Below are positions 7,424-24,740 of a DNA stretch of 30,805 bases, in pieces; the first letter of the stretch is position 1, and each line of letters opens with the position of its first letter. The notes below the pieces were generated by a model. That model was not told the origin of the DNA and did not search any database. It saw only the letters and a program-made list of their open reading frames with translations. The stretch lies in the IMG/VR virus record IMGVR_UViG_3300017909_002289, positions 1 through 30,805 of that record. One strand, written 5' to 3'. The translations under genes were made by a program, and so were the position numbers. The stretch comes from a virus. Taxonomy: Duplodnaviria; Caudoviricetes.

Positions 7424-10219
7424 ATGGAAAAAACATTTTATTTAAACAGTAATTTTGAAACTAAAAGACTAGGTAAGTCTGCAGGATTAAAAATTGCAGG
7501 TTATGCTAATACTACAGATAAGGACAGGGTAGGAGACGTAGTTACCGCCAAGGCTTGGGCTAAAGGTGTAGAAAACTACAGAAAAAACCCTGTTTTATTA
7601 TATCAACATAAACATGACCAGCCTATTGGAAAAGTAGATAAAGTTACTGTTGACAGAAAAGGGATTTACGTCGATGCCATTGTGAGTGAGGCAGCTGAAA
7701 AACTTCATGGAGTACAAACACTTATTAAAGACGGTGCTTTAAAAAGTTTTTCAGTAGGTTTCAGAGTTAAAGACGGTAATTATGACGAAAAAACAGATTC
7801 TATGACTATCACAGACGTAGAATTACTAGAGATCAGTGTGGTTAGCGTTCCTGCTAATCAAAACTCCCTCTTTAGTATCAGAAAAAGTTTTGATGGAGAT
7901 TCTGACTATGAGAACTTTGTTAAAAACTTTAAAACAGAAGAAAGTGAGGAAGAAATGGATACAGAAGATACCCTTGTCGAAGAGAAGTCTGAAGCCATTT
8001 CTGAAACAGAAGTTGTTGAAACTGTAGAAACTACAGAGACGATTGAAGTTGAAGAAAAAGCTGAAGAAGGTTCTTCAAACGAAGATCTCACTGAAGAAGA
8101 AAAAGCAACAGAAGCAGAAGAGTCTACTGAAGAAATTGCTGAAGAGACTAAGACTGTGGAAAAGGAAACAACTTTAGAACTTTCTGATGAAGAGGAAGAG
8201 CTAGAGGAAACCGATCCTATGGAGCCGATTCCTTTTGTAAATCTATTGTCTGCCGAAACTTCTTCATTGAATACTGGCTCCTTTGTAAAATACGAAGGAA
8301 AAAGATTTAAAATTACTAAAATTGCTACTGCCGAATCTCCAAATTTTAAATTTTTAGAGGTTGACGTAAACGGAAAATCAGTAGATAATATAGATACAAT
8401 AAATGCAGAAGAAATTGCTGTTGTTAATACTTGGGATATTGATACTAAATACGATATTCATGTTATCAATACAAAAACTCCAAGGTTGACAGATTCAATT
8501 AGAGAACAGATTAAATCAAACTATAGTGATTCTAATACTGCAACCGAGCAATATTTATTCCAGTTAAAGAACGATGAAAATATTGCAGAAAACTATGAAA
8601 ACCAAGAAAAACTTAATAAAATCCTTAATTTAAAATCAAGTGGGGATGACTGGTCAGATTCAGACTATGTTTTCGCAAACTATTTAAATTCAATGATTTC
8701 AGAACTTAAGAAAACAAATCAAAATGATCAAAGAGATCTTGCCCTTAAGTTACACGGGCATGCGATTATCGAAGAAAAGGAGAAAGACGATATGGCTACT
8801 CAAACTGCAGGTGATGTGCTAACAATTGACACTGGCGCAACCGAAAATAAATCAGCAGAAGCTAAAGCCGCCACTATTGAGGTACAAGAGCCTAGAGTGG
8901 CCGAATTAGTTGAAAAAACTGGTGAAGCTATTATGGCTGAAGCAGATGCTAAAGATAGACAAGAGCTTGTTCAAGAGAAAGCAGCTTATACCCCTCGTGA
9001 GAGCGAGGCAGTTGCCGAACTTAAAGCTCAAATGGAAAAATACCGTGAAGAGATTGCTGCTCTTCAGAACAGCAAAATGGTATTCCAAGAGTCTCAGCGT
9101 AAAGAAAACCCATATTCTGAGAAGGAAATGGCTAACGCTGTGATGCTTGGTTATGCTCTTGGTAAGCGCGATCCTATGGATACCTCTTATGGTAACCGTA
9201 TGAAAGCTATTGTCCAGTCTGGACATGGAGAGAACTTTATTTCTAACTTCTCTACCAATATTTATGAAGAAATGCAGCAGCAGCTAGTTGTTGCACCAAT
9301 GTTCCAGCGCTTGAGTGTGGATGCAAAAACTTTCCGTATTCCGGTTGCTGATGAAGATAACGGTGGAACCTCTGCGTCTTCTGATGACGTTGCACAGTTC
9401 GCTTCTGGAACTTATGCATCTGGTATTGCAGACGCCACTAACGTGCCGAATTCTTACCAGAATAAAATTAAGTCTGTAGACTTAACTCCGCATAAGTTTA
9501 TGACTTCAACTCATATTGCTAAGGACGAAGAAGAAGATACCATTCTTCCTCTTATCGACTTCCTACGTGCTTCTACGACTCGTCGTATTGCCCGTGCTAT
9601 CGATAAAGCGATCCTTCGTGGTAACGGCGCTTTAAGTGGCTTTAATGCTAACTCTGATCAGTCGCTTACTACTGGTGGTACTGGATTCCGTTCTGTGATT
9701 ACTGGTATTACTAAGCTTGCTAACGCAGCCGCTCTTGAGCAGCAGACTGGTAGCTCGTCTACTAAAGCCGCTCCTGCTGAGATTGCTGACGCTCGCGCAA
9801 CTCTTGGTAAGTATGGTCTCCAGCTTGGCGATCAGCTAGTACTTATCACTTCTGTTGAGGGTTATAACTCTCTTGTAGCTGAAAGTGATTTCCGTACTGT
9901 TGATAAGTTTGGACCTAACGCTACTTACTTAACTGGTGCTCTTGGCGCTATCTACGGAATTCCTGTTGTTATCTCTGAGTTCATGGATAACGTAGGTACT
10001 ACTCATAACGTTCTTGCATCTCTCGTCTATAAGCCAGGATTCGTCATTGGTGAAAGACGTGGAATGGAAATTGAGAGCGAGTATGAGCCACGCCAGCAGG
10101 TTACTGCAATGTATATGTCAACTCGCTTTGACTTCAAGGCAATGACAACTGCAGGAACCGCTTCGTCGCCGACCTTGAGCAGCACGTATTCATTCGCGTG
10201 TAATATCTCAGCTGGTTAA
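7424..10219 (+). CDS. Prohead protease - insertion - major capsid protein fusion (HK97 fold)
   Basis: Residues 1-155 form an HK97-type protease (IAGYAN, LLYQH, SFSVGF, LLEISVVSVPAN). An acidic linker and a ~190-aa insert follow. The C-terminal ~475 aa is capsid (coiled-coil delta domain, IARAIDKAILRGNG, GAIYGIPVVISE, RFDF). Confidence 0.93.
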   Translation: MEKTFYLNSNFETKRLGKSAGLKIAGYANTTDKDRVGDVVTAKAWAKGVENYRKNPVLLYQHKHDQPIGKVDKVTVDRKGIYVDAIVSEAAEKLHGVQTLIKDGALKSFSVGFRVKDGNYDEKTDSMTITDVELLEISVVSVPANQNSLFSIRKSFDGDSDYENFVKNFKTEESEEEMDTEDTLVEEKSEAISETEVVETVETTETIEVEEKAEEGSSNEDLTEEEKATEAEESTEEIAEETKTVEKETTLELSDEEEELEETDPMEPIPFVNLLSAETSSLNTGSFVKYEGKRFKITKIATAESPNFKFLEVDVNGKSVDNIDTINAEEIAVVNTWDIDTKYDIHVINTKTPRLTDSIREQIKSNYSDSNTATEQYLFQLKNDENIAENYENQEKLNKILNLKSSGDDWSDSDYVFANYLNSMISELKKTNQNDQRDLALKLHGHAIIEEKEKDDMATQTAGDVLTIDTGATENKSAEAKAATIEVQEPRVAELVEKTGEAIMAEADAKDRQELVQEKAAYTPRESEAVAELKAQMEKYREEIAALQNSKMVFQESQRKENPYSEKEMANAVMLGYALGKRDPMDTSYGNRMKAIVQSGHGENFISNFSTNIYEEMQQQLVVAPMFQRLSVDAKTFRIPVADEDNGGTSASSDDVAQFASGTYASGIADATNVPNSYQNKIKSVDLTPHKFMTSTHIAKDEEEDTILPLIDFLRASTTRRIARAIDKAILRGNGALSGFNANSDQSLTTGGTGFRSVITGITKLANAAALEQQTGSSSTKAAPAEIADARATLGKYGLQLGDQLVLITSVEGYNSLVAESDFRTVDKFGPNATYLTGALGAIYGIPVVISEFMDNVGTTHNVLASLVYKPGFVIGERRGMEIESEYEPRQQVTAMYMSTRFDFKAMTTAGTASSPTLSSTYSFACNISAG
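8361..8389 (+). promoter_or_regulatory. Possible internal promoter upstream of the nested capsid start
   Basis: TTGACG (8361-8366), 17 nt, GATAAT (8384-8389), about 400 nt before ATG 8792. Confidence 0.35.
8792..10219 (+). CDS. Major capsid protein from nested in-frame start (475 aa)
   Basis: AAGGAG (8777-8782) lies 9 nt before the in-frame ATG 8792 (M457). Codon usage shifts downstream (more CGT, CTT, TTC, AAC). Size is similar to a stand-alone T5-like capsid precursor. Confidence 0.75.
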   Translation: MATQTAGDVLTIDTGATENKSAEAKAATIEVQEPRVAELVEKTGEAIMAEADAKDRQELVQEKAAYTPRESEAVAELKAQMEKYREEIAALQNSKMVFQESQRKENPYSEKEMANAVMLGYALGKRDPMDTSYGNRMKAIVQSGHGENFISNFSTNIYEEMQQQLVVAPMFQRLSVDAKTFRIPVADEDNGGTSASSDDVAQFASGTYASGIADATNVPNSYQNKIKSVDLTPHKFMTSTHIAKDEEEDTILPLIDFLRASTTRRIARAIDKAILRGNGALSGFNANSDQSLTTGGTGFRSVITGITKLANAAALEQQTGSSSTKAAPAEIADARATLGKYGLQLGDQLVLITSVEGYNSLVAESDFRTVDKFGPNATYLTGALGAIYGIPVVISEFMDNVGTTHNVLASLVYKPGFVIGERRGMEIESEYEPRQQVTAMYMSTRFDFKAMTTAGTASSPTLSSTYSFACNISAG

Positions 10220-10259
10220 TATATAATACCTATATAATAAACCAGGCGTTTAATACAAC

Positions 10260-10290
10260 AGGGCAGGTGTTCAACGCCTGCCCTATTTTA
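10260..10290 (+). terminator. Intrinsic terminator after capsid gene
   Basis: AGGGCAGGTGT-TCA-ACGCCTGCCCT is an 11-bp GC-rich stem (one G-U), followed by ATTTTA. Confidence 0.8.
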
Positions 10291-10307
10291 CTAATAAGGA
10301 GAGTAAT

Positions 10308-13171: not shown

Positions 13172-13211
13172 AAAAATTTAATTTGCCAGAACTAGATTAA
13201 GGTGCTATACT
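13171..13211 (+). promoter_or_regulatory. T5-style strong promoter for tail genes
   Basis: A-tract AAAAAATTTAA, TTGCCA (13183-13188), 17 nt, extended -10 TGcTATACT (13203-13211), in an intergenic gap. Confidence 0.75.
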
Positions 13212-13215
13212 AATA

Positions 13216-13668
13216 ATGTCGAATCAAAGAAGAAACATAATTAATCACATTCTTACAAATTTAAAACTTATAGATGGTTCTATTTCATCCTTAAATTCGA
13301 ATTATACTTTTCAGAATAACGCTTTTAACAATGTCTTTAGAAAAGTTAAATTTTTAGATGAAGTAAATGATTTTCCATCAGTATTTTTTCAAGTTGGAGA
13401 AGAAGTTAGGGTATATAACACTTCAGGTAATACCACGGGTTTGATACCGCTAACTCTTCGAATATATGTCAATGATGAGGAATCTTCTGGCAGTTTAGAT
13501 AGTTTAATACAAGATATAGAACACGTTATTTATAATTTAGATACTGGAGTATATAATATACGTGACATGACAATCTCTAGTGTGGATACTGACGAAGGCT
13601 TAGTAAAACCATACGGAATTGGTGAAATAGAAATACTAATCGAATACGAATTAGATATAGAAAATTAA
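13216..13668 (+). CDS. Tail terminator protein (T5 p142-like)
   Basis: 150 aa, acidic. NVFRKVKFLDEVNDFPSV, LIQDIEHVI, VDTDEGLVKPYGIGEI. Lies immediately before the tail tube gene. Confidence 0.85.
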   Translation: MSNQRRNIINHILTNLKLIDGSISSLNSNYTFQNNAFNNVFRKVKFLDEVNDFPSVFFQVGEEVRVYNTSGNTTGLIPLTLRIYVNDEESSGSLDSLIQDIEHVIYNLDTGVYNIRDMTISSVDTDEGLVKPYGIGEIEILIEYELDIEN

Positions 13669-13679
13669 GGAGTTAAAAA

Positions 13680-14978
13680 ATGGCAGGTACTCAGCTTAAC
13701 CTACAAAGAAATACTAAAGTCTTTTATTCTATTAAAGACTTAAGTCTCAGTGCCACCACAGCCGCGGATCTCACCCCACAAAATACTTGGAGAGTGGAAG
13801 TGTTGGCTGGGTACGCACTATCTGCTGACTCTGCGGTTCAAGATATTACTTCTTTAGAATCAGGTCTTGACCCAGATAGAAGCGTTCAGCGCTTTAATAC
13901 AGCAAGAAACCCCGTGGAATGGAATTTTCAGACATACTTACGTCCGACAGGGGCGGAACAAAACAGTGGTTCTACTGGCGTAGCACAGACAGGAAACACA
14001 AAACCGGTAGCAGACTGGTATTTATGGCAAGCTCTAGTTAGTAACACTAAGCCTGCTAGTTCAAATGGTGGTGAGCAATCAGTTTGGGCATATGATTCAA
14101 CAACAGATTCGGGTAAGTTAGCATCTGCTAATACAGCTGCTACAGCTAATACCCACTCTACTCGTTCTAACTTTGCTATTGCACAAGAAAATCATATGTA
14201 TTTCAAACTTGATAACCTAGTTTACCAAGTTAAAAAAGCTATTGTCAATACTGGAGAGATTGATGCTTCAGTTGATGGTATTGCAACCACTACTTGGAGT
14301 GGTTTTGGAACTGAGATGGTAGAACTTACTGGAGCAGCTAGAGACAAAGCTATTGCAGTATTTGGAGGTGTAGGAAACGACGGTTCTACTGTAACTCCTA
14401 ACGCTAGTATTAGTATGGATGCTACTTCTTCTCACCATCCTTATGCTACTATGAATGTTAATGGATCTACCTATACTGTTGACTTTATTAAGAACCGTTT
14501 AAGTTCTATTTCAATCAGTCACCAAGGTAGTGCTGCAGAAACTGCAAACCTTTACTCTTTCCCTGTTACTGGACTAAGCTTCAGCTATTCTAATGATGTT
14601 ACATACTTAACACCTGAAGAATTAGCAGCATTGAATACTCCAATTGGTCAGTTTACAGGATCTAGAACAGTCACAGGTTCGTTTACTGCTTACTTAAGAT
14701 CAGCGTCTGAAAGCTCTACTCGTGCTAACTCAGCGCAGTTCTTGAATAAAGTGGTTAATGACTCTAGAGTTTCGCACGCTTCTACTAGCTCGGCAAATAT
14801 TCAAATTGGCGGTGGAACAGCTCCGTTCTTCCATATCAATATGCCAGCTGTGCAGTTTAACTTCCCGGTTCATCAAATTGATGATGTTCTTGGAATGTCT
14901 GTTGACTTCCTTGCCCAGGAAGGAACCAGAGGCTCTGGCGACGAAATTCAGTTCTTCGTAAAGAGTGACAATAACTAA
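13680..14978 (+). CDS. Major tail tube protein (T5 pb6-like)
   Basis: LNLQRNTKVFYS...QDITSLESG..PDRSVQRFNTARNPVEWNFQTYLRP resembles the pb6 N-terminus. AAGGAG SD. No C-terminal Ig domain evident. Confidence 0.9.
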   Translation: MAGTQLNLQRNTKVFYSIKDLSLSATTAADLTPQNTWRVEVLAGYALSADSAVQDITSLESGLDPDRSVQRFNTARNPVEWNFQTYLRPTGAEQNSGSTGVAQTGNTKPVADWYLWQALVSNTKPASSNGGEQSVWAYDSTTDSGKLASANTAATANTHSTRSNFAIAQENHMYFKLDNLVYQVKKAIVNTGEIDASVDGIATTTWSGFGTEMVELTGAARDKAIAVFGGVGNDGSTVTPNASISMDATSSHHPYATMNVNGSTYTVDFIKNRLSSISISHQGSAAETANLYSFPVTGLSFSYSNDVTYLTPEELAALNTPIGQFTGSRTVTGSFTAYLRSASESSTRANSAQFLNKVVNDSRVSHASTSSANIQIGGGTAPFFHINMPAVQFNFPVHQIDDVLGMSVDFLAQEGTRGSGDEIQFFVKSDNN

Positions 14979-15091
14979 ATGAAAATTATCTGAGGGGGAT
15001 AATACGTTTTCATGTGGGTGTTCATCATGAGCAAAAGCAAGCTTCCCCCTCAGCTTTGCCTAAGCTAATATATGATGGACACCCTTTTTTT
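14979..15091 (+). ncRNA. Putative structured cis-regulatory RNA: hairpin plus long terminator stem with loop-loop complementarity
   Basis: Stem 14985-14990/14998-15003 (extended by 14979-14984/15008-15013). 13-bp stem 15016-15028/15072-15084 followed by T7. Inner stem 15039-15043/15052-15056. CTGAGGGGGA (14990-14999) is the exact complement of TCCCCCTCAG (15044-15053). Confidence 0.65.
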
Positions 15092-15118
15092 ATACTAACA
15101 ACCTAAGAGGGGAGTAAT

Positions 15119-15550
15119 ATGAGTAAAATTTCAAAATTAATTGCAACTGAAACTATTACAGAAGTAGAGTATCCTGATATTGAAGGGTTTGTAATTAATG
15201 TTGCATACTTAACAAGAGAAGATTTAGTAAAAATTAGGAATCAAAGCCTAAGCTATAAGTTCAATAAACGCACTCGTCAAAGAGAAGAAGAAATTGATCA
15301 AGACAAGTTTTTAGAGGCTTATACTAAAAAAGCTATTAGAGGTTGGAAAGGTTTGAAAATGAAACACCTTCCTAACTTACTTCCTGTAGATTTAACAGGG
15401 GCTAATTTAGAAGAGGTTATTCCTTATACAGAGGAGGAAGCCCTAGACCTAATTAAATCTTCTACAGTTTTTGATCAGTTTATTACAGATTGCATGAGTG
15501 ATTTTGAGCAGTTCTCAGTAACCAAGAAAAAAAAAAAAAAAAAAAACTAA
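15119..15550 (+). CDS. Tail assembly chaperone (gpG-like)
   Basis: Lies between tail tube and tape measure. IRGWKGL motif. Ends in slippery A AAA AAC TAA. Confidence 0.88.
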   Translation: MSKISKLIATETITEVEYPDIEGFVINVAYLTREDLVKIRNQSLSYKFNKRTRQREEEIDQDKFLEAYTKKAIRGWKGLKMKHLPNLLPVDLTGANLEEVIPYTEEEALDLIKSSTVFDQFITDCMSDFEQFSVTKKKKKKKN

Positions 15551-15588
15551 TTAAGTACCTTCAAACTAATTTTGCAGGAGGAGGTATT
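15527..15588 (+). promoter_or_regulatory. Programmed -1 frameshift signal (A20 run, A_AAA_AAC, downstream hairpin)
   Basis: The -1 frame is open from 15547 into ORF 15610-15915. A 9-bp stem AGTACCTTC (15554-15562)/GGAGGTATT (15580-15588) begins 6 nt after the heptamer. Confidence 0.85.
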
Positions 15589-15915
15589 ACTAAAGAACAA
15601 TACTGGTTAATGGCAGAACAAATGGGTTGGGAAGATTTTGATGACGAGCCTATTGACCCTGCCGACTTATCTTTAGAAGCACAACAAGCTTTAGTTCTTA
15701 TGAATATCTTACCTGATAAAATAGAAGGTATGAATGGTGTTTGGTTAGGAAAAGAATACTCAGGGTTGTCTGACATTTTAACTATTTATCAAATGGTTAA
15801 TTGGAGAGATACCTTTGATATGTTACAGGTATGTATTCAGCAGTATTCTAAGTTTTACGATGAAAAACGCAAACAAGAAGAACGTAAAGCGAAAGCTGGT
15901 TCTAAGTTTAAATAG
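15547..15915 (+). CDS. Tail assembly chaperone frameshift extension (gpT-like part of gpGT)
   Basis: LIKYLQTNFAGGGITKEQYWL runs in frame into MAEQMGWE. ATG 15610 has no properly spaced SD. Confidence 0.82.
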   Translation, partial: LIKYLQTNFAGGGITKEQYWLMAEQMGWEDFDDEPIDPADLSLEAQQALVLMNILPDKIEGMNGVWLGKEYSGLSDILTIYQMVNWRDTFDMLQVCIQQYSKFYDEKRKQEERKAKAGSKFK

Positions 15916-20728: not shown

Positions 20729-21739
20729 ATGGCAAGAAAAAGATACCCAAACGATGCAACATTTAATCCTCTGTTAATTCCTGCTCTTTCAAGAATTACG
20801 TATACAGCAGGAGGTTCACAAACTAGCTTTAATCTATCTGAAGCCGCAGAAAAAGTCGGTGAGGTAGTGGCTGTCCTTGATGGTATCCCTCAATCAACAG
20901 ATACTTATTCCTTAAGTAATACTAATACTCTAAATGCTAGTTTAAAAAATACAATAACCTTTAATGATGCTCCTGCTTCTGGAGTTACTGTTGAGCTTAG
21001 AGTAATTAGAATTCCTCCGTCCTTTGAAATTTTAAGGTCATTTCCTGACGTAAAATCAATTACATATTCTGGTTCTAATGTTACAGTGAGTGGTAATAGT
21101 TACGTTATTGATGGAAGTCAGCTTAATTTTGCGCTTCCTGAGAATAGTCTTGTAGATGTAAAAGATGATTTAATTGTTACTATTGGTGGTATTACACAGA
21201 ATCAAGATCAGTATACTTTTCCTTCTCCTACTCTTGGAAAACAAGGTATCAAGATAGGCTCTGATGCTGCAGGAACTATTCCTTTTTCTAACACTACTGT
21301 AGCTCCTACCGCTGGAATTAATACTTTATCTATTACTTCTTTTAATAAGGATGAGGTAATTACTAGATTAGACTCTATGGCTGACAAGAAACCAGATCGT
21401 TCTGGTATTCAAACTAATCAACAGTTTAACTATGAGCGAGCAGAGATGCAAGCAGGATACGAAAAACGTAGACTAATAAGTCGTAGACCAAAAAGAACAT
21501 TTTCTATTCAGTATACTAATGTAACAGGCCTAGTTAAATCAGCTATCGAGGAGTTTTATCGTGCTAGATCAGGTGGATTTGAATCATTCTTATTTGAGTT
21601 AACTCATATTAATGAGCCAGGCACCGTTACAACGCGCTTTGAAGGTCCTTTAAATATAACTCAAGTATTATCTGCCGGTACAAATCCAATAGATAATTTT
21701 TATACAATTAGCTTTGATTTACAAGAGGTCTTTGATTAA
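20729..21739 (+). CDS. Distal tail protein (lambda gpM-like) with N-terminal accessory domains
   Basis: The C-terminal ~110 aa (AGYEKRR...PKRTFSIQY...IEEFYRARSGGFESFLF...ISFDLQEVF) is gpM-like. The N-terminus has two copies of the beta domain seen in ORF 16-951. Confidence 0.8.
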   Translation: MARKRYPNDATFNPLLIPALSRITYTAGGSQTSFNLSEAAEKVGEVVAVLDGIPQSTDTYSLSNTNTLNASLKNTITFNDAPASGVTVELRVIRIPPSFEILRSFPDVKSITYSGSNVTVSGNSYVIDGSQLNFALPENSLVDVKDDLIVTIGGITQNQDQYTFPSPTLGKQGIKIGSDAAGTIPFSNTTVAPTAGINTLSITSFNKDEVITRLDSMADKKPDRSGIQTNQQFNYERAEMQAGYEKRRLISRRPKRTFSIQYTNVTGLVKSAIEEFYRARSGGFESFLFELTHINEPGTVTTRFEGPLNITQVLSAGTNPIDNFYTISFDLQEVFD

Positions 21740-23274
21740 TGTCAACTCGTGCATATGATTATACTTTAACTCTTACAGGCGGTAACTTAGACAATTATTT
21801 TAAAGATAATGTTGTCGTTGGTAGTTCTACAGCAACTGAAGGTAGAATTGTAGCTGTAGATAAATCTAATAGTCAGATAAAAGTAAAAGTAGCAAATTCG
21901 TTACACAACTTTTCTTCTGGAGAATCTGTTAGTATCCAATCTGTAGTAACTACAGGAGGAGACACTAGCTTAGCCTTTGGAGACTCAACTTTTTCTACTC
22001 CTCAATATAGCTCTACTACAAGTTCCTCTAGTAGAAGTATTTCTTCTATTGAATTAAGTGGTTTTTCTACTTTTAAAAATGCTACTGAACAATCTCCTAT
22101 TGTTAGGCTGCTCTCTATCTATTATCCTGGAGAGTTTTATCCCCCAAATAAAAACGGTAACCCTTCAAACGCTGGAGAGGGATTAGCTTGGCCTGTTGGA
22201 TTTCCTTACTATTTTGCATCTGTTCAAGGAGATGTATTATCTGATTTAGAGTATAGAGCACACCATGATGGAAATGAATATTTAGTTTATCCTATTAATT
22301 TTGGAGGCACTGATATCTCTACTGACGGTAGAGTAAATCAAACTACTGTTGAGATATCTAACTTTGATAACTTAATAGCATCAATAGTAGAAGATCCCTA
22401 TATTTCTGGTAATAATACAAGTAATTCTGTATATGCAACAGTTGGAGGTCAAATTGTAGCTAACATTGATCCGCGAACAGTGCCAGGAACAACAAGTAAT
22501 CCAGACGGTTTGAATTATGATCAAACTGTTGTAGATGGAGTCTACGCAGGTATTTCTAACTCTGCTTTTACATATGCTCAGACTCAAGCCGTAAATGGTA
22601 CGTGGAAACAGTCTAAACAAGATTCAAGAGATTTGTTAGGAGGAGTCGTTGAAGTAAAAACAACCTTTGCTAGTTGTCTTGATTATTGGCCAGAATATAG
22701 TACTGTAAGAGATAGCAGAGCAAACGTAGTTGAGGTATACTCTTCGTTACCATATAGGGTAGGAGATAATGTAATTGTTTCTGGTAGTTCTACTAAACAC
22801 TCTATCGTAAAAGAAGTAAGAGGCAACTTCCTACAACTTGAGAACAGTATTAGTACAGTAATAGGAGATAAACTATTTATTGTTAATCCTTCTAGAGATC
22901 CTCATGCCTATGTAGAAGATGTTTTTAGAATTGAATCTTTAACAGGTCTAAATTCTTTAGTTGCTTCTTTTAGTTTAACAAACTGGCTTGAGTATTTTAA
23001 ATTTGTATTACCTAAACGAAGATTTTATAAAAACACTTGTCAATGGGTGTATAAAGGAGAAGAGTGTCAGTATCCAGAAAACGGAACAGGATCAATTCCA
23101 GGATATCCAACAGGAAAAACAAAAACAGCAAATGGATTTTTTACTATTAATAATGCAACAACATCAGATCAAAGCGAAGATGTATGTGCAAAGAACTATG
23201 AAGCTTGTAGTTTAAGAAATAATCAAGTACATTTTGGGGGATTTATTGCAACAGGAAGAACTATACCAAAATAA
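21739..23274 (+). CDS. Tail tip protein L (lambda gpL-like, Fe-S binding), enlarged
   Basis: YLVYPI...TTVEISN, DLLGGVVEVKTTFASCLD, LPKRRFYKNTCQWVYKGEEC...CAKNYEACSLR...FGGF, carrying the CX8C...CX6C cysteines. Confidence 0.9.
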   Translation: MSTRAYDYTLTLTGGNLDNYFKDNVVVGSSTATEGRIVAVDKSNSQIKVKVANSLHNFSSGESVSIQSVVTTGGDTSLAFGDSTFSTPQYSSTTSSSSRSISSIELSGFSTFKNATEQSPIVRLLSIYYPGEFYPPNKNGNPSNAGEGLAWPVGFPYYFASVQGDVLSDLEYRAHHDGNEYLVYPINFGGTDISTDGRVNQTTVEISNFDNLIASIVEDPYISGNNTSNSVYATVGGQIVANIDPRTVPGTTSNPDGLNYDQTVVDGVYAGISNSAFTYAQTQAVNGTWKQSKQDSRDLLGGVVEVKTTFASCLDYWPEYSTVRDSRANVVEVYSSLPYRVGDNVIVSGSSTKHSIVKEVRGNFLQLENSISTVIGDKLFIVNPSRDPHAYVEDVFRIESLTGLNSLVASFSLTNWLEYFKFVLPKRRFYKNTCQWVYKGEECQYPENGTGSIPGYPTGKTKTANGFFTINNATTSDQSEDVCAKNYEACSLRNNQVHFGGFIATGRTIPK

Positions 23275-23296
23275 CTATGAAAAAGCTTTGGCAACT

Positions 23297-23731
23297 ATGC
23301 CAGACTGGATCACTACATATTTAGGTATTCCATATCGTCACTTAGGTGATGATTTAGAAAGAGGAATAGATTGCGGTAATTTGTGCGCACGAGTTTTAAA
23401 AGATCAAGTGGGAGAAGATATACCGTTAAAAACATATGATGTTTGTGATATTGTAGAAGAAGATTGGTACAGAAAAACTCATCAACGCTGGTTTGAAGAA
23501 ACATTTAAAAATATAGAAAATGGTTTTATAGAGATTGACAATTTACAGCCGTTTGATATAATATTAATGAGTATAGGAAGTTCAAACATTACTAATCACT
23601 GCGCTTTGTATATTGGTAATAATAAGATGCTGCAGACAATGGTTGATCATACGTCTTGGATAGCTCCGTATGGTAAATGGTACAAAAGATATACAGTGGG
23701 GAAGTATAGATGGAAAAACTTACAGTTTTAA
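23297..23731 (+). CDS. NlpC/P60 peptidase (corresponds to the C-terminal domain of lambda gpK)
   Basis: YLGIPYRHLG...GIDCGNL (catalytic Cys), NHCALYIGNNKMLQ (His). Start uncertain, with ATG 23297 preferred over 23234. Confidence 0.9.
   Translation: MPDWITTYLGIPYRHLGDDLERGIDCGNLCARVLKDQVGEDIPLKTYDVCDIVEEDWYRKTHQRWFEETFKNIENGFIEIDNLQPFDIILMSIGSSNITNHCALYIGNNKMLQTMVDHTSWIAPYGKWYKRYTVGKYRWKNLQF
23535..23562 (+). promoter_or_regulatory. Consensus sigma70 promoter inside the NlpC/P60 gene
   Basis: TTGACA (23535-23540), 16 nt, TATAAT (23557-23562), with extended -10 TG at 23554-23555. Confidence 0.6.
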
Positions 23732-24075
23732 AAGAGGAGTTTAAAAAACACTCACTAGAAGAGTATCCTAAAGAGTGTTGTGGTATTATTACTAAAGACT
23801 TTGAATATATTCCTTGTAAAAACATAAGTAGTGATCCAATAAATACTTTTGTTTTAGACCCTGTTGCTTTAATTACTTACGAAGATGATTGTTGGGGAGT
23901 ATTTCATTCTCATCCTGATGAAGAACCTACTCCTTCTATTTTAGACGGTAAAAAAATAGCTAATAATGAGTTAAAATACTTAGTTGGGTGGGATGATAAT
24001 ATATTTATGTACTGGTTTGATGAGTCTATTCAAAGCACTAGATTTAAAAGACTACAGGAAGACATGTTACAATGA
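23710..24075 (+). CDS. JAB/MPN metalloprotease (corresponds to the N-terminal domain of lambda gpK)
   Basis: YPKECCG (Glu), PCKNIS, and an intact JAMM motif HSHPxxxxxPSxxD. Confidence 0.92.
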   Translation: MEKLTVLKEEFKKHSLEEYPKECCGIITKDFEYIPCKNISSDPINTFVLDPVALITYEDDCWGVFHSHPDEEPTPSILDGKKIANNELKYLVGWDDNIFMYWFDESIQSTRFKRLQEDMLQ

Positions 24076-24740
24076 AAATTAAGTTAAAATTTCACAAAAC
24101 ACTATTAAAGTATACAGATGAAGTAAGAGATGTGACTTTTGATGTCACAACTTATGGACAACTAATTTCAGCTATTGAAGCCTCATTTCCTAAGTTAAAA
24201 AGCATTATAAAACAGATAAAAAATAGACAAACAACTGATAATTTTAGCTTAGTTGATTTAGATAAAGAACGAGTTTTGACTTTTAACGACTACATGAGTA
24301 AAAAGATTCGTTCTGTAAATCTTTGTTTGTCGCCTATAGTAGCTGGAGGAAAATCCAATTTAGAAACTGCTATTCTCGCAACGGCTTTAATAGTAGCCTC
24401 TTTTTACATACCAGGAAGTGCAGAAATAGCGGGGATAGCTCTTAACCAGGTAGTGTTTACTGTAGGTGTTACAATGTTGACCAGTGCTGTAACTGCTGAG
24501 TTAATGAAGCCCCCTAAGAAAGATGGCACAGATGAAGAAGCTAGAGAAAATGATGCTTTTGGGGCGTTACAACACACTATTGCTTCTGGCACTCCTATTC
24601 CGCTTGTGTATGGAAGACATAGAGTGGCAGGTCAATTTTTAAGTGGGGAGATAAGAACTCTAGAAAAGCCACCTCAAAGAAAGAATCAATCTAATATAAT
24701 GAAAGACATATTTAAATCAAGTTATGGAAGTTTATTTTAA
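24072..24740 (+). CDS. Tail assembly protein I (lambda gpI-like, ubiquitin-like N-terminus)
   Basis: Beta-grasp-like N-terminus ending PIVAGG, a hydrophobic segment, and GTPIPLVYGRHRVAGQFLS. Confidence 0.9.
   Translation: MKIKLKFHKTLLKYTDEVRDVTFDVTTYGQLISAIEASFPKLKSIIKQIKNRQTTDNFSLVDLDKERVLTFNDYMSKKIRSVNLCLSPIVAGGKSNLETAILATALIVASFYIPGSAEIAGIALNQVVFTVGVTMLTSAVTAELMKPPKKDGTDEEARENDAFGALQHTIASGTPIPLVYGRHRVAGQFLSGEIRTLEKPPQRKNQSNIMKDIFKSSYGSLF

Follow-up and report, generated by a model that had tools for sequence, protein, structure and literature searches.

Results

Genomic context of the tube-chaperone gap

The window, as we call the whole stretch of 30,805 nucleotides analysed here, is a virus record of 30.8 kb whose structural operon is T5-like and has the order terminase, portal, protease-capsid, tail terminator, tail tube, chaperone, second chaperone frame and tape measure (Table 1). 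The major tail proteins of cultured T5-like phages closest to the window tube protein share about 29% identity with it. In six cultured T5-like phages a minor-tail or baseplate-tube gene directly follows the tube gene and the gap is absent, in keeping with the statement of an earlier note on this DNA that the slot holds a protein gene in T5 (p140), which is missing here. In the window, the tube and chaperone genes are separated by positions 14979–15118, which contain the RNA element that is the subject of this study. The chaperone gene ends in a conserved slippery motif, A AAA AAC UAA, that terminates most homologues, and from this motif and the G/GT arrangement of lambda we infer that the second chaperone frame is reached by -1 frameshifting.

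Table 1. Coordinates of the tail genes and of the RNA element in the window.
Feature	Position	Strand	Remarks
Tail tube (major tail) protein gene, T5 pb6-like, 432 aa	13680–14978	+	phrog_3575, E 7e-46; Shine-Dalgarno sequence (SD) AAGGAG
Hairpin P1, weak, AU-rich, beginning at the tube stop codon	14979–15013	+	top stem 14985–14990/14998–15003
P1 loop UGAGGGG, SD-like; putative decoy and kissing partner	14991–14997	+	GAGGGG in the first 45 nt of 123/123 distinct gaps
P2, 5´ strand of the 13-bp base stem	15016–15028	+	fits RNase III consensus; predicted cut after 15028
Apical arm: P3, internal loop, P4, A-rich 3´ bulge	15029–15071	+	P3 15030–15032/15064–15066; P4 15037–15042/15053–15059; bulge 15067–15071
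P4 loop UUCCCCCUCA, anti-SD-like	15043–15052	+	complementary to P1 loop and chaperone SD
P2, 3´ strand	15072–15084	+	predicted RNase III cut before 15074
U7 tract, terminator-like tail in the lineage of the window	15085–15091	+	
Chaperone SD GAGGGG	15107–15112	+	complementary to P4 loop; 6 nt before the ATG at 15119
Tail assembly chaperone gene (G-type), 143 aa	15119–15550	+	phrog_313, E 5e-9; ATG at 15119
Second chaperone frame (T-type)	15610–15915	+	phrog_3914, E 3.5e-6
Tape measure protein gene, 1600 aa	15924–20726	+	phrog_3779, E 7e-40

Several other features of the operon were observed. Ahead of the chaperone stop the window has a run of about 21 A (15526–15546), and the equally long stretch at this place in the near-identical record L001 is A-rich but mixed; the run is probably an assembly or polishing artefact. 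On the 3´ side of the slippery motif, most of 51 representatives show a hairpin (15541–15586 in the window) with the anti-SD- and SD-like arms ACCUYC and GGAGGU. The chaperone frame has 147–156 codons, against about 143, in seven loci (L038, L059, L110, L113, L152, L246 and L252), and there the stop consequently no longer lies directly after the slippery site. A single ORF of 931 aa (7424–10219) encodes a fusion of prohead protease and major capsid protein, these being separate genes in the annotated T5-like isolates compared, and three 2OG-Fe(II) oxygenase-like genes are clustered upstream of the terminase gene (1027–2992). The starts at 1027 and 2989 have G-rich SDs that could also pair with the C-rich P4 loop (C-loop). 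An extended -10 promoter-like site (13183–13218; 10/12 matches) ends 4 nt before the ATG of the tail-terminator gene, which lacks a clear SD; this start is possibly leaderless, with the promoter-like site also driving the tube gene, and promoter matches overall are at chance level. At the other end of the operon, lambda-like tail tip genes (20729–24740; minor tail phrog_18, phrog_30, phrog_32 and central fibre J) stand behind the T5-like tube and chaperone genes.

Anatomy of the element

The gap contains GAGGGG at 14992 and 15107 and CCCCTC once, at 15046. Positions 14990–14999 are the exact reverse complement of 15044–15053, and P2 comprises 13 bp with one G·U pair, encloses 43 nt and is followed directly by T7. 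The positions stated in the earlier note are all correct. Homologues revise its picture of the two loops. The inner hairpin loop is TCCCCCTC in the minimum free energy fold and is instead a 9–11-nt loop of the form NNN-CCCCUCA in the homologues, and the 10-nt complement is exact but does not consist of loop bases throughout: its ends run into the tops of both stems, such that about 7–8 bp at most would form loop to loop. The P1 loop has 7 nt in the window and is an 8-nt Y-UGAGGGG in the homologues. In both hairpins the complementary bases lie on the 3´ side of the loop, which is the geometry of kissing complexes.

When the gap was shuffled 5000 times with its dinucleotides preserved, 56 of the shuffles also contained a 10-nt complement, and the fold z-score of the window gap is -2.2. 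These values are only modestly beyond chance, and the argument therefore depends on the comparative data. Three other public runs yielded contigs that span the element. Among the 55 representatives described below, P1 has a mean predicted energy of -3.2 kcal/mol, P2 measures 11–15 bp with a mode of 13 (30/55), and the linker between them is variable. Other candidate features were rejected: a small ORF behind the P1 loop (G-loop) has, by eye, no conserved start codon after it, a sigma-70 promoter in the gap amounts to a 9/12 match on the minus strand, which is chance level, and a long stem in record G001 that was thought to be intergenic is inside the portal gene.

Conservation and covariation

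Loci were gathered by protein-anchored scans and one DNA-pattern scan, the locus searches covering the best 80 of 349, 233 and 353 matches. The 343 loci examined are redundant, the same contig often having been fetched repeatedly. Both genes with a gap of 100–200 nt were found in 294 of them, representing 123 distinct gaps; the other 49 had no match to one of the genes, being truncated loci or six chance pattern matches. All 294 gap-spanning loci have the element, down to a tube protein identity of about 48%, and the sampled identities include nothing between this value and 29%. GAGGGG early and CCCCTC later in the gap are present in 293 of the 294, and the remaining locus, L278, keeps the pairing through G·U; it is also the sole exception among the distinct gaps, of which 122 of 123 have CCCCTC. 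The loop-to-loop complement to which the earlier note had drawn attention is thus conserved in homologues. L278 and a further locus, L279, lie with the element on 5-kb contigs in a Melainabacteria MAG and a SAR86 MAG; these contigs are probably binned phage fragments and so of no use as host evidence.

Representatives were taken at under 90% identity, 44 and then 55 in number, with 18 of them under 75%. Covariation was scored on a plain MAFFT alignment of the 44, using the structure of one member without fitting it to the others. Both-side changes occur in 27 of 35 stem pairs, with a covariation score of 0.41 vs. 0.20 for shuffled and 0.12–0.15 for slid partners. By stem, both-side changes affect 7/7 pairs of P1, 12/13 of P2 and 4/4 of each of P3 and P4, for which just 73–78% of cells pair on the unfitted alignment. 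RNAalifold independently recovers P1 and P2. A covariance model (R1) retrieved 13 homologues outside its training set at E < 1e-8 and one strong copy per record in five long records, where the next best match had E 0.007; this weak second match (G004:C1:4261-4347, belonging to L285; 23.5 bits) lies far from tail genes. In cultured T5-like phages R1 gave nothing significant, with no match better than E 0.24.

Of the 68 matches in the DNA-pattern scan, 62 adjoin a tube or chaperone gene; the other six, which are without tail genes, were considered as other contexts for the element and rejected, as none fits the model. The pattern includes the invariant loops and is blind to variants with swapped loops. 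Searches for relatives beyond the sampled set were negative: no pattern fit for use could be derived from an alignment of 25–45% identical tube proteins, and a query with one single protein had no match. When the gap was compared by blastn with 50,697 phage records, there were just four short matches (E 2–5). On this comparative evidence, the element is a real conserved structured RNA of 120–160 nt in uncultured T5-like phages, and its universal core is the loop pair together with P2. Stem covariation and loop retention bear out the suspicion, raised from the window alone, that more than a plain terminator is encoded here.

Pairing between the two loops

Except in the one G·U variant, the loop sequences GAGGGG and CCCCUC do not vary, and none of the seven core loop-loop pairs has a both-side change among the 44 representatives; pairing there rests on invariance. 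The eighth pair varies. Among 122 gaps it is G-C in 77, A-U in 28, G·U in 12 and mismatched in 5, and its A/G state changes eight times on a tree of tube plus chaperone proteins. In independent pairs, with four rows of other letters left out of 121, the two sides changed the same way in 3.2 of 5 and in opposite ways in 0.0, against 0.5–0.7 the same way in slid controls; the sign test (p 0.125–0.25) is underpowered, five pairs being unable to reach significance. The base in the eighth pair also closes P1, which leaves the top of P1 open to invasion. We consider it likely that the two loops kiss.

Energy predictions rank the extended decoy duplex above the SD duplex in 53 of 55 representatives. 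When growing prefixes of the RNA were folded with nested pairs only, a duplex of the G-run and the C-run was predicted to dominate from the emergence of the C-run until P2 closes some 30–34 nt later (P ~0.9, in 45–53 of the 55). A kiss that coexists with the closed stems would be a pseudoknot and lies outside such nested folding.

P2 as a terminator and as a candidate RNase III site

The U-run after P2 has at least 5 U in 23 of 55 representatives, at least 4 in 40 and at most 3 in 15. An attenuator built on the T7 tract, as the earlier note had imagined, is accordingly not supported as a general feature. Its remark that a plain terminator is insufficient agrees with the conservation data, with the proviso that the window does have a GC-rich stem and U7 and that the tract is lineage-specific. 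Another site in the window resembles a conventional terminator, in contrast to the tail element: on the 3´ side of the capsid gene (10220–10307) an AU-rich hairpin is accompanied by a GC-rich one of 11 bp whose tail is a short run of U (10260–10284).

P2 also fits a published weak consensus for RNase III (available text of PMC4357697). In the best-scoring register, chosen alike for real and shuffled stems, the mean score is 12.4/16 vs. 8.0 for shuffled pairs, and the fit reaches p<=0.05 in 42 of 55 representatives and in 13 of the 18 sequences under 75% alike. The P2 score is the top of 61 hairpins in G001 and the third of 52 in G002. All 55 stems have at least 11 bp, the helix minimum given for the Escherichia coli enzyme in the sections consulted of PMC1540722. 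The junction of P2 with P3 is where cuts would be expected (after 15028 and before 15074), releasing a self-folding arm of 42–52 nt. Such a route through an RNase III-type base stem, which the first reading of the window did not see, would give its suggestion of a processed small RNA a concrete, if predicted, form.

Several observations temper the prediction. P2 changes are nearly all transitions, and the RNase III match may thus be largely inherited. By E. coli rules, which may not be those of the host enzyme, the proximal box reads mixed: under a putative mapping of its positions onto the consensus, position 2 is A-U in 41/55, but position 4 is C-G in 35/55. The pair beside the predicted cut is C-G in 35 of 55, and C-G at this place is reported as a catalytic antideterminant that lowers cutting by the E. 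coli enzyme 7–14-fold (PMC1540722, as far as the text used extends). In vivo, RNase III sites have no strong consensus (PMC8708148, in the part consulted). A phage-encoded RNase III was found in 0 of 5 records searched. The contigs of four RNA runs fall for the most part within the tube gene, and none covers the element; assembled contigs show neither RNA ends nor levels, and these runs are therefore no evidence either way.

Complementarity to the chaperone SD

The SDs of the two genes differ in kind. All 43 homologous tube gene starts have AGGAG, and the chaperone starts have GAGGG in 31 of 40 and AGGAG in 0 of 40 (the script missed four of 44 starts). GAGGG was found at 0 of 121 other gene starts in the same loci, and genome-wide at 10/197 and 4/131 starts, or 3–5%, which is approximate since starts were called at the first ATG. 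The chaperone SD matches the C-loop over 5–6 nt in 43 of 55 representatives and over just GAGG or AGG (3–4 nt) in the other 12. The complementarity of CCCCTC to this SD, proposed in the earlier note, therefore holds as a specific match.

Switching at the SD, one form that the RNA switch inferred in the same note could take, fares less evenly as a universal feature. The match in 43 of 55 speaks for it; against it stand the 12 weak matches, in which the loops stay fixed all the same, and the absence of covariation between SD and loop, the next base being A in all 29 cases, 21 of them mismatching. The SD is moreover just 6–10 nt from the end of P2 in 25 of 55, a distance that probably does not allow contact with the apical loop as long as P2 stays closed. 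With the 5´ strand of P2 removed, the loop-SD helix is predicted at > 0.5 in 25 of 55.

Discussion

With structure and complementarities established by comparison, we infer cleavage, SD occlusion and the trigger in the following scheme from sequence. The reading that we favour, tentatively and as something a little short of probable, is that the junction element ends the tube message, by termination or by RNase III depending on lineage, and parks its anti-SD loop on the decoy loop. Once transcribed, the C-loop would pair with the upstream G-loop. P2 would close next and so end the tube mRNA, through intrinsic termination where a U-tract follows, as in the window, or alternatively through cleavage by host RNase III where P2 meets P3. 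Protection of the tube mRNA at its 3´ end would fall to the kissed loops, and with the C-loop held on the decoy the chaperone SD would stay open. If the decoy became unavailable, or if cleavage freed the 42–52-nt arm, the C-loop would pair with the chaperone SD and translation of chaperone and tape measure would decrease. The element is in this way likely to set the output of tube vs. chaperone and tape measure.

The strongest competitor, in itself rather unlikely, confines the function to the 3´ end: the kiss and P2 would together make a compact knot, shielding the tube mRNA once it has been terminated or cut, and the chaperone SD would match the C-loop only incidentally. This would account for loops that are invariant even where the SD match is weak, for the lack of covariation of the SD and for its closeness to P2. 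A deep clade of nine fits as well, having a U-run of at least 4 in 9/9 and an SD match in just 2/9; its RNase III score is weak too, with a mean of 6.9 that is lowered by registers mis-set in some rows, and both weaknesses count against the favoured scheme. Single RNase III cuts that leave protective 3´ hairpins are described (PMC3867540, in the text available). What a protective knot does not explain is why the loops keep SD and anti-SD sequence instead of covarying freely, nor why the chaperone SD is of the GAGGG type in 43 of 55 representatives vs. none of the neighbouring starts and a few percent genome-wide.

A bolder version of the favoured scheme, unlikely as it stands, is that host RNase III excises an anti-SD hairpin of about 45 nt that is sponged by the decoy loop after the tube stop, with the free arm silencing the chaperone and tape-measure genes in proportion to the use of tube mRNA. 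If true, tail assembly would have its stoichiometry set by a device made of RNA alone, acting in series with the G/GT frameshift.

Translation of the tube gene could itself be the signal. In a ribosome-sensing attenuator or translational-coupling relay, the ribosome finishing the tube gene would open or mask P1 and thereby alter capture of the C-loop and, with it, read-through or chaperone initiation. The G-run lies 8–24 nt (median 13) after the tube stop, P1 is weak, both its 5´ strand and the flank of the C-loop are possible partners for its 3´ strand, and up to the closing of P2 the intermediate predicted is the long-range duplex. We nevertheless regard such a relay as decidedly unlikely: the U-run is short in the 15 representatives noted above, the long-range duplex shares no bases with P2 and is thus not a classical antiterminator, holding the stop codon and 7 nt unpaired barely alters the predicted profile, and the distance from the tube stop varies three-fold.

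More doubtful still is an independent RNA or protein-binding platform, in which an excised 45-nt antisense hairpin acts in trans on G-rich SDs or copies are joined loop to loop, as molecules of phi29 pRNA are joined between copies. The predicted cuts would release an arm that folds by itself, GAGGG or AGGGG stands upstream of 15 ORFs in G001, the chaperone among them, and by a geometric estimate an intramolecular kiss needs a sharp bend, with 14–30 nt from the G-run to P2. Against action in trans or as a multimer, five records have one copy per genome, no protein partner was found, and the element always occupies the same cis slot, the six pattern matches away from tube and chaperone genes being off-model. 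Finally, an ordinary terminator hairpin with chance complementarity, for all the GC-rich stem and U7 of the window and a U-run of at least 4 in 40 of 55, is essentially refuted by the conservation data, since each of the 123 distinct gaps keeps both loops even though the stems change in sequence, and many have no U-tract.

From a single operon, a long-tailed phage has to make tube subunits in large number, chaperone in a fixed quantity and tape-measure molecules in small number, and the chaperone frameshift is the familiar control. In the literature searched, as far as the accessible text goes, a step-down of output after the tube gene is poorly described. The element offers a compact, alignable RNA at precisely this step in a widespread uncultured T5-like clade, and the predictions at base level (cut sites after 15028 and before 15074, loop swaps, SD swap) are testable without the phage. 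The logic of decoy and anti-SD, if true, would bring the antisense design of temperate-phage immunity into virion assembly; in any case the element would be a new RNA family.

Comparison with known systems

The earlier note recognised no named RNA family, and a model search of the Rfam/Infernal type agrees, giving no family at gathering score (best E 2.4 for window positions 14700–15400; best E 0.16, to miRNA models, for five homologous loci; none for the whole window). No description of the element was found in the open literature searched, in so far as its text was accessible. Unnamed candidates of intergenic IMG/VR origin were reported by Fremin et al. 2023 (PMC10690425), ten of them upstream of Phage_TAC families; the four of the ten compared, by their descriptions, measure 37–91 nt and have other predicted hosts, and that source, available in part, may hold an unnamed match. 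The window chaperone passes no Pfam TAC cut-off. We regard the element as an RNA without a described family.

Intrinsic terminators after major structural genes of phages share the GC-rich stem and U-tract seen in the window, where a plain one follows the capsid gene (10260–10284). The element differs from them by a structured interior of 43 nt, by invariant complementary loops and by the short U-run of some representatives. T7 R1.1-type sites are likewise intergenic phage hairpins with a consensus helix of 11–13 bp that ends at a bulge or internal loop, and a single cut in them may leave a protective 3´ structure (PMC1540722, PMC3867540, PMC8708148 and PMC4357697, each in the portion consulted). 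Here the base stem corresponds to the consensus helix, whereas the arm displays an anti-SD loop that is invariant and has its partner upstream, the pair by the cut is mostly C-G, and cleavage is a prediction.

Two RNAs of temperate and satellite phages come closer in logic. In the C4 RNA of P1 and P7, as set out in the available text of PMC5320573, a structured phage RNA is released from a longer transcript by cutting, and a loop of it blocks a ribosome-binding site; a loop complementary to such a site over at least 5 nt is also what 43 of 55 representatives have here. C4 is described there as an immunity RNA of about 77 nt, cut by RNase P, with three stem-loops and pairing loops a´ and b´, whereas the element has two hairpins and a single C-rich pairing loop, which caps a bulged arm; its stem is of the RNase III type, it includes a decoy loop, it lies in a tail operon rather than an immunity locus and it has no C4 match in Rfam. 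The CI RNA of satellite phage P4 is a processed segment that controls downstream genes and has complementary sites both upstream and downstream in the same transcript, seqA and seqC (PMC4825925, in the part consulted). The same arrangement was found here, with an upstream match in 123 of 123 distinct gaps and a downstream match of at least 5 nt in 43 of 55. P4 CI differs in acting in immunity, by premature termination, according to the same text; the present element belongs to a structural operon, its upstream target is a hairpin loop and its processing is predicted, and with its place in the tail operon of a T5-like phage and no Rfam match it shows no P4-like immunity locus or homology. By analogy, then, the element would work like P4 CI and P1 C4, but it belongs to neither.
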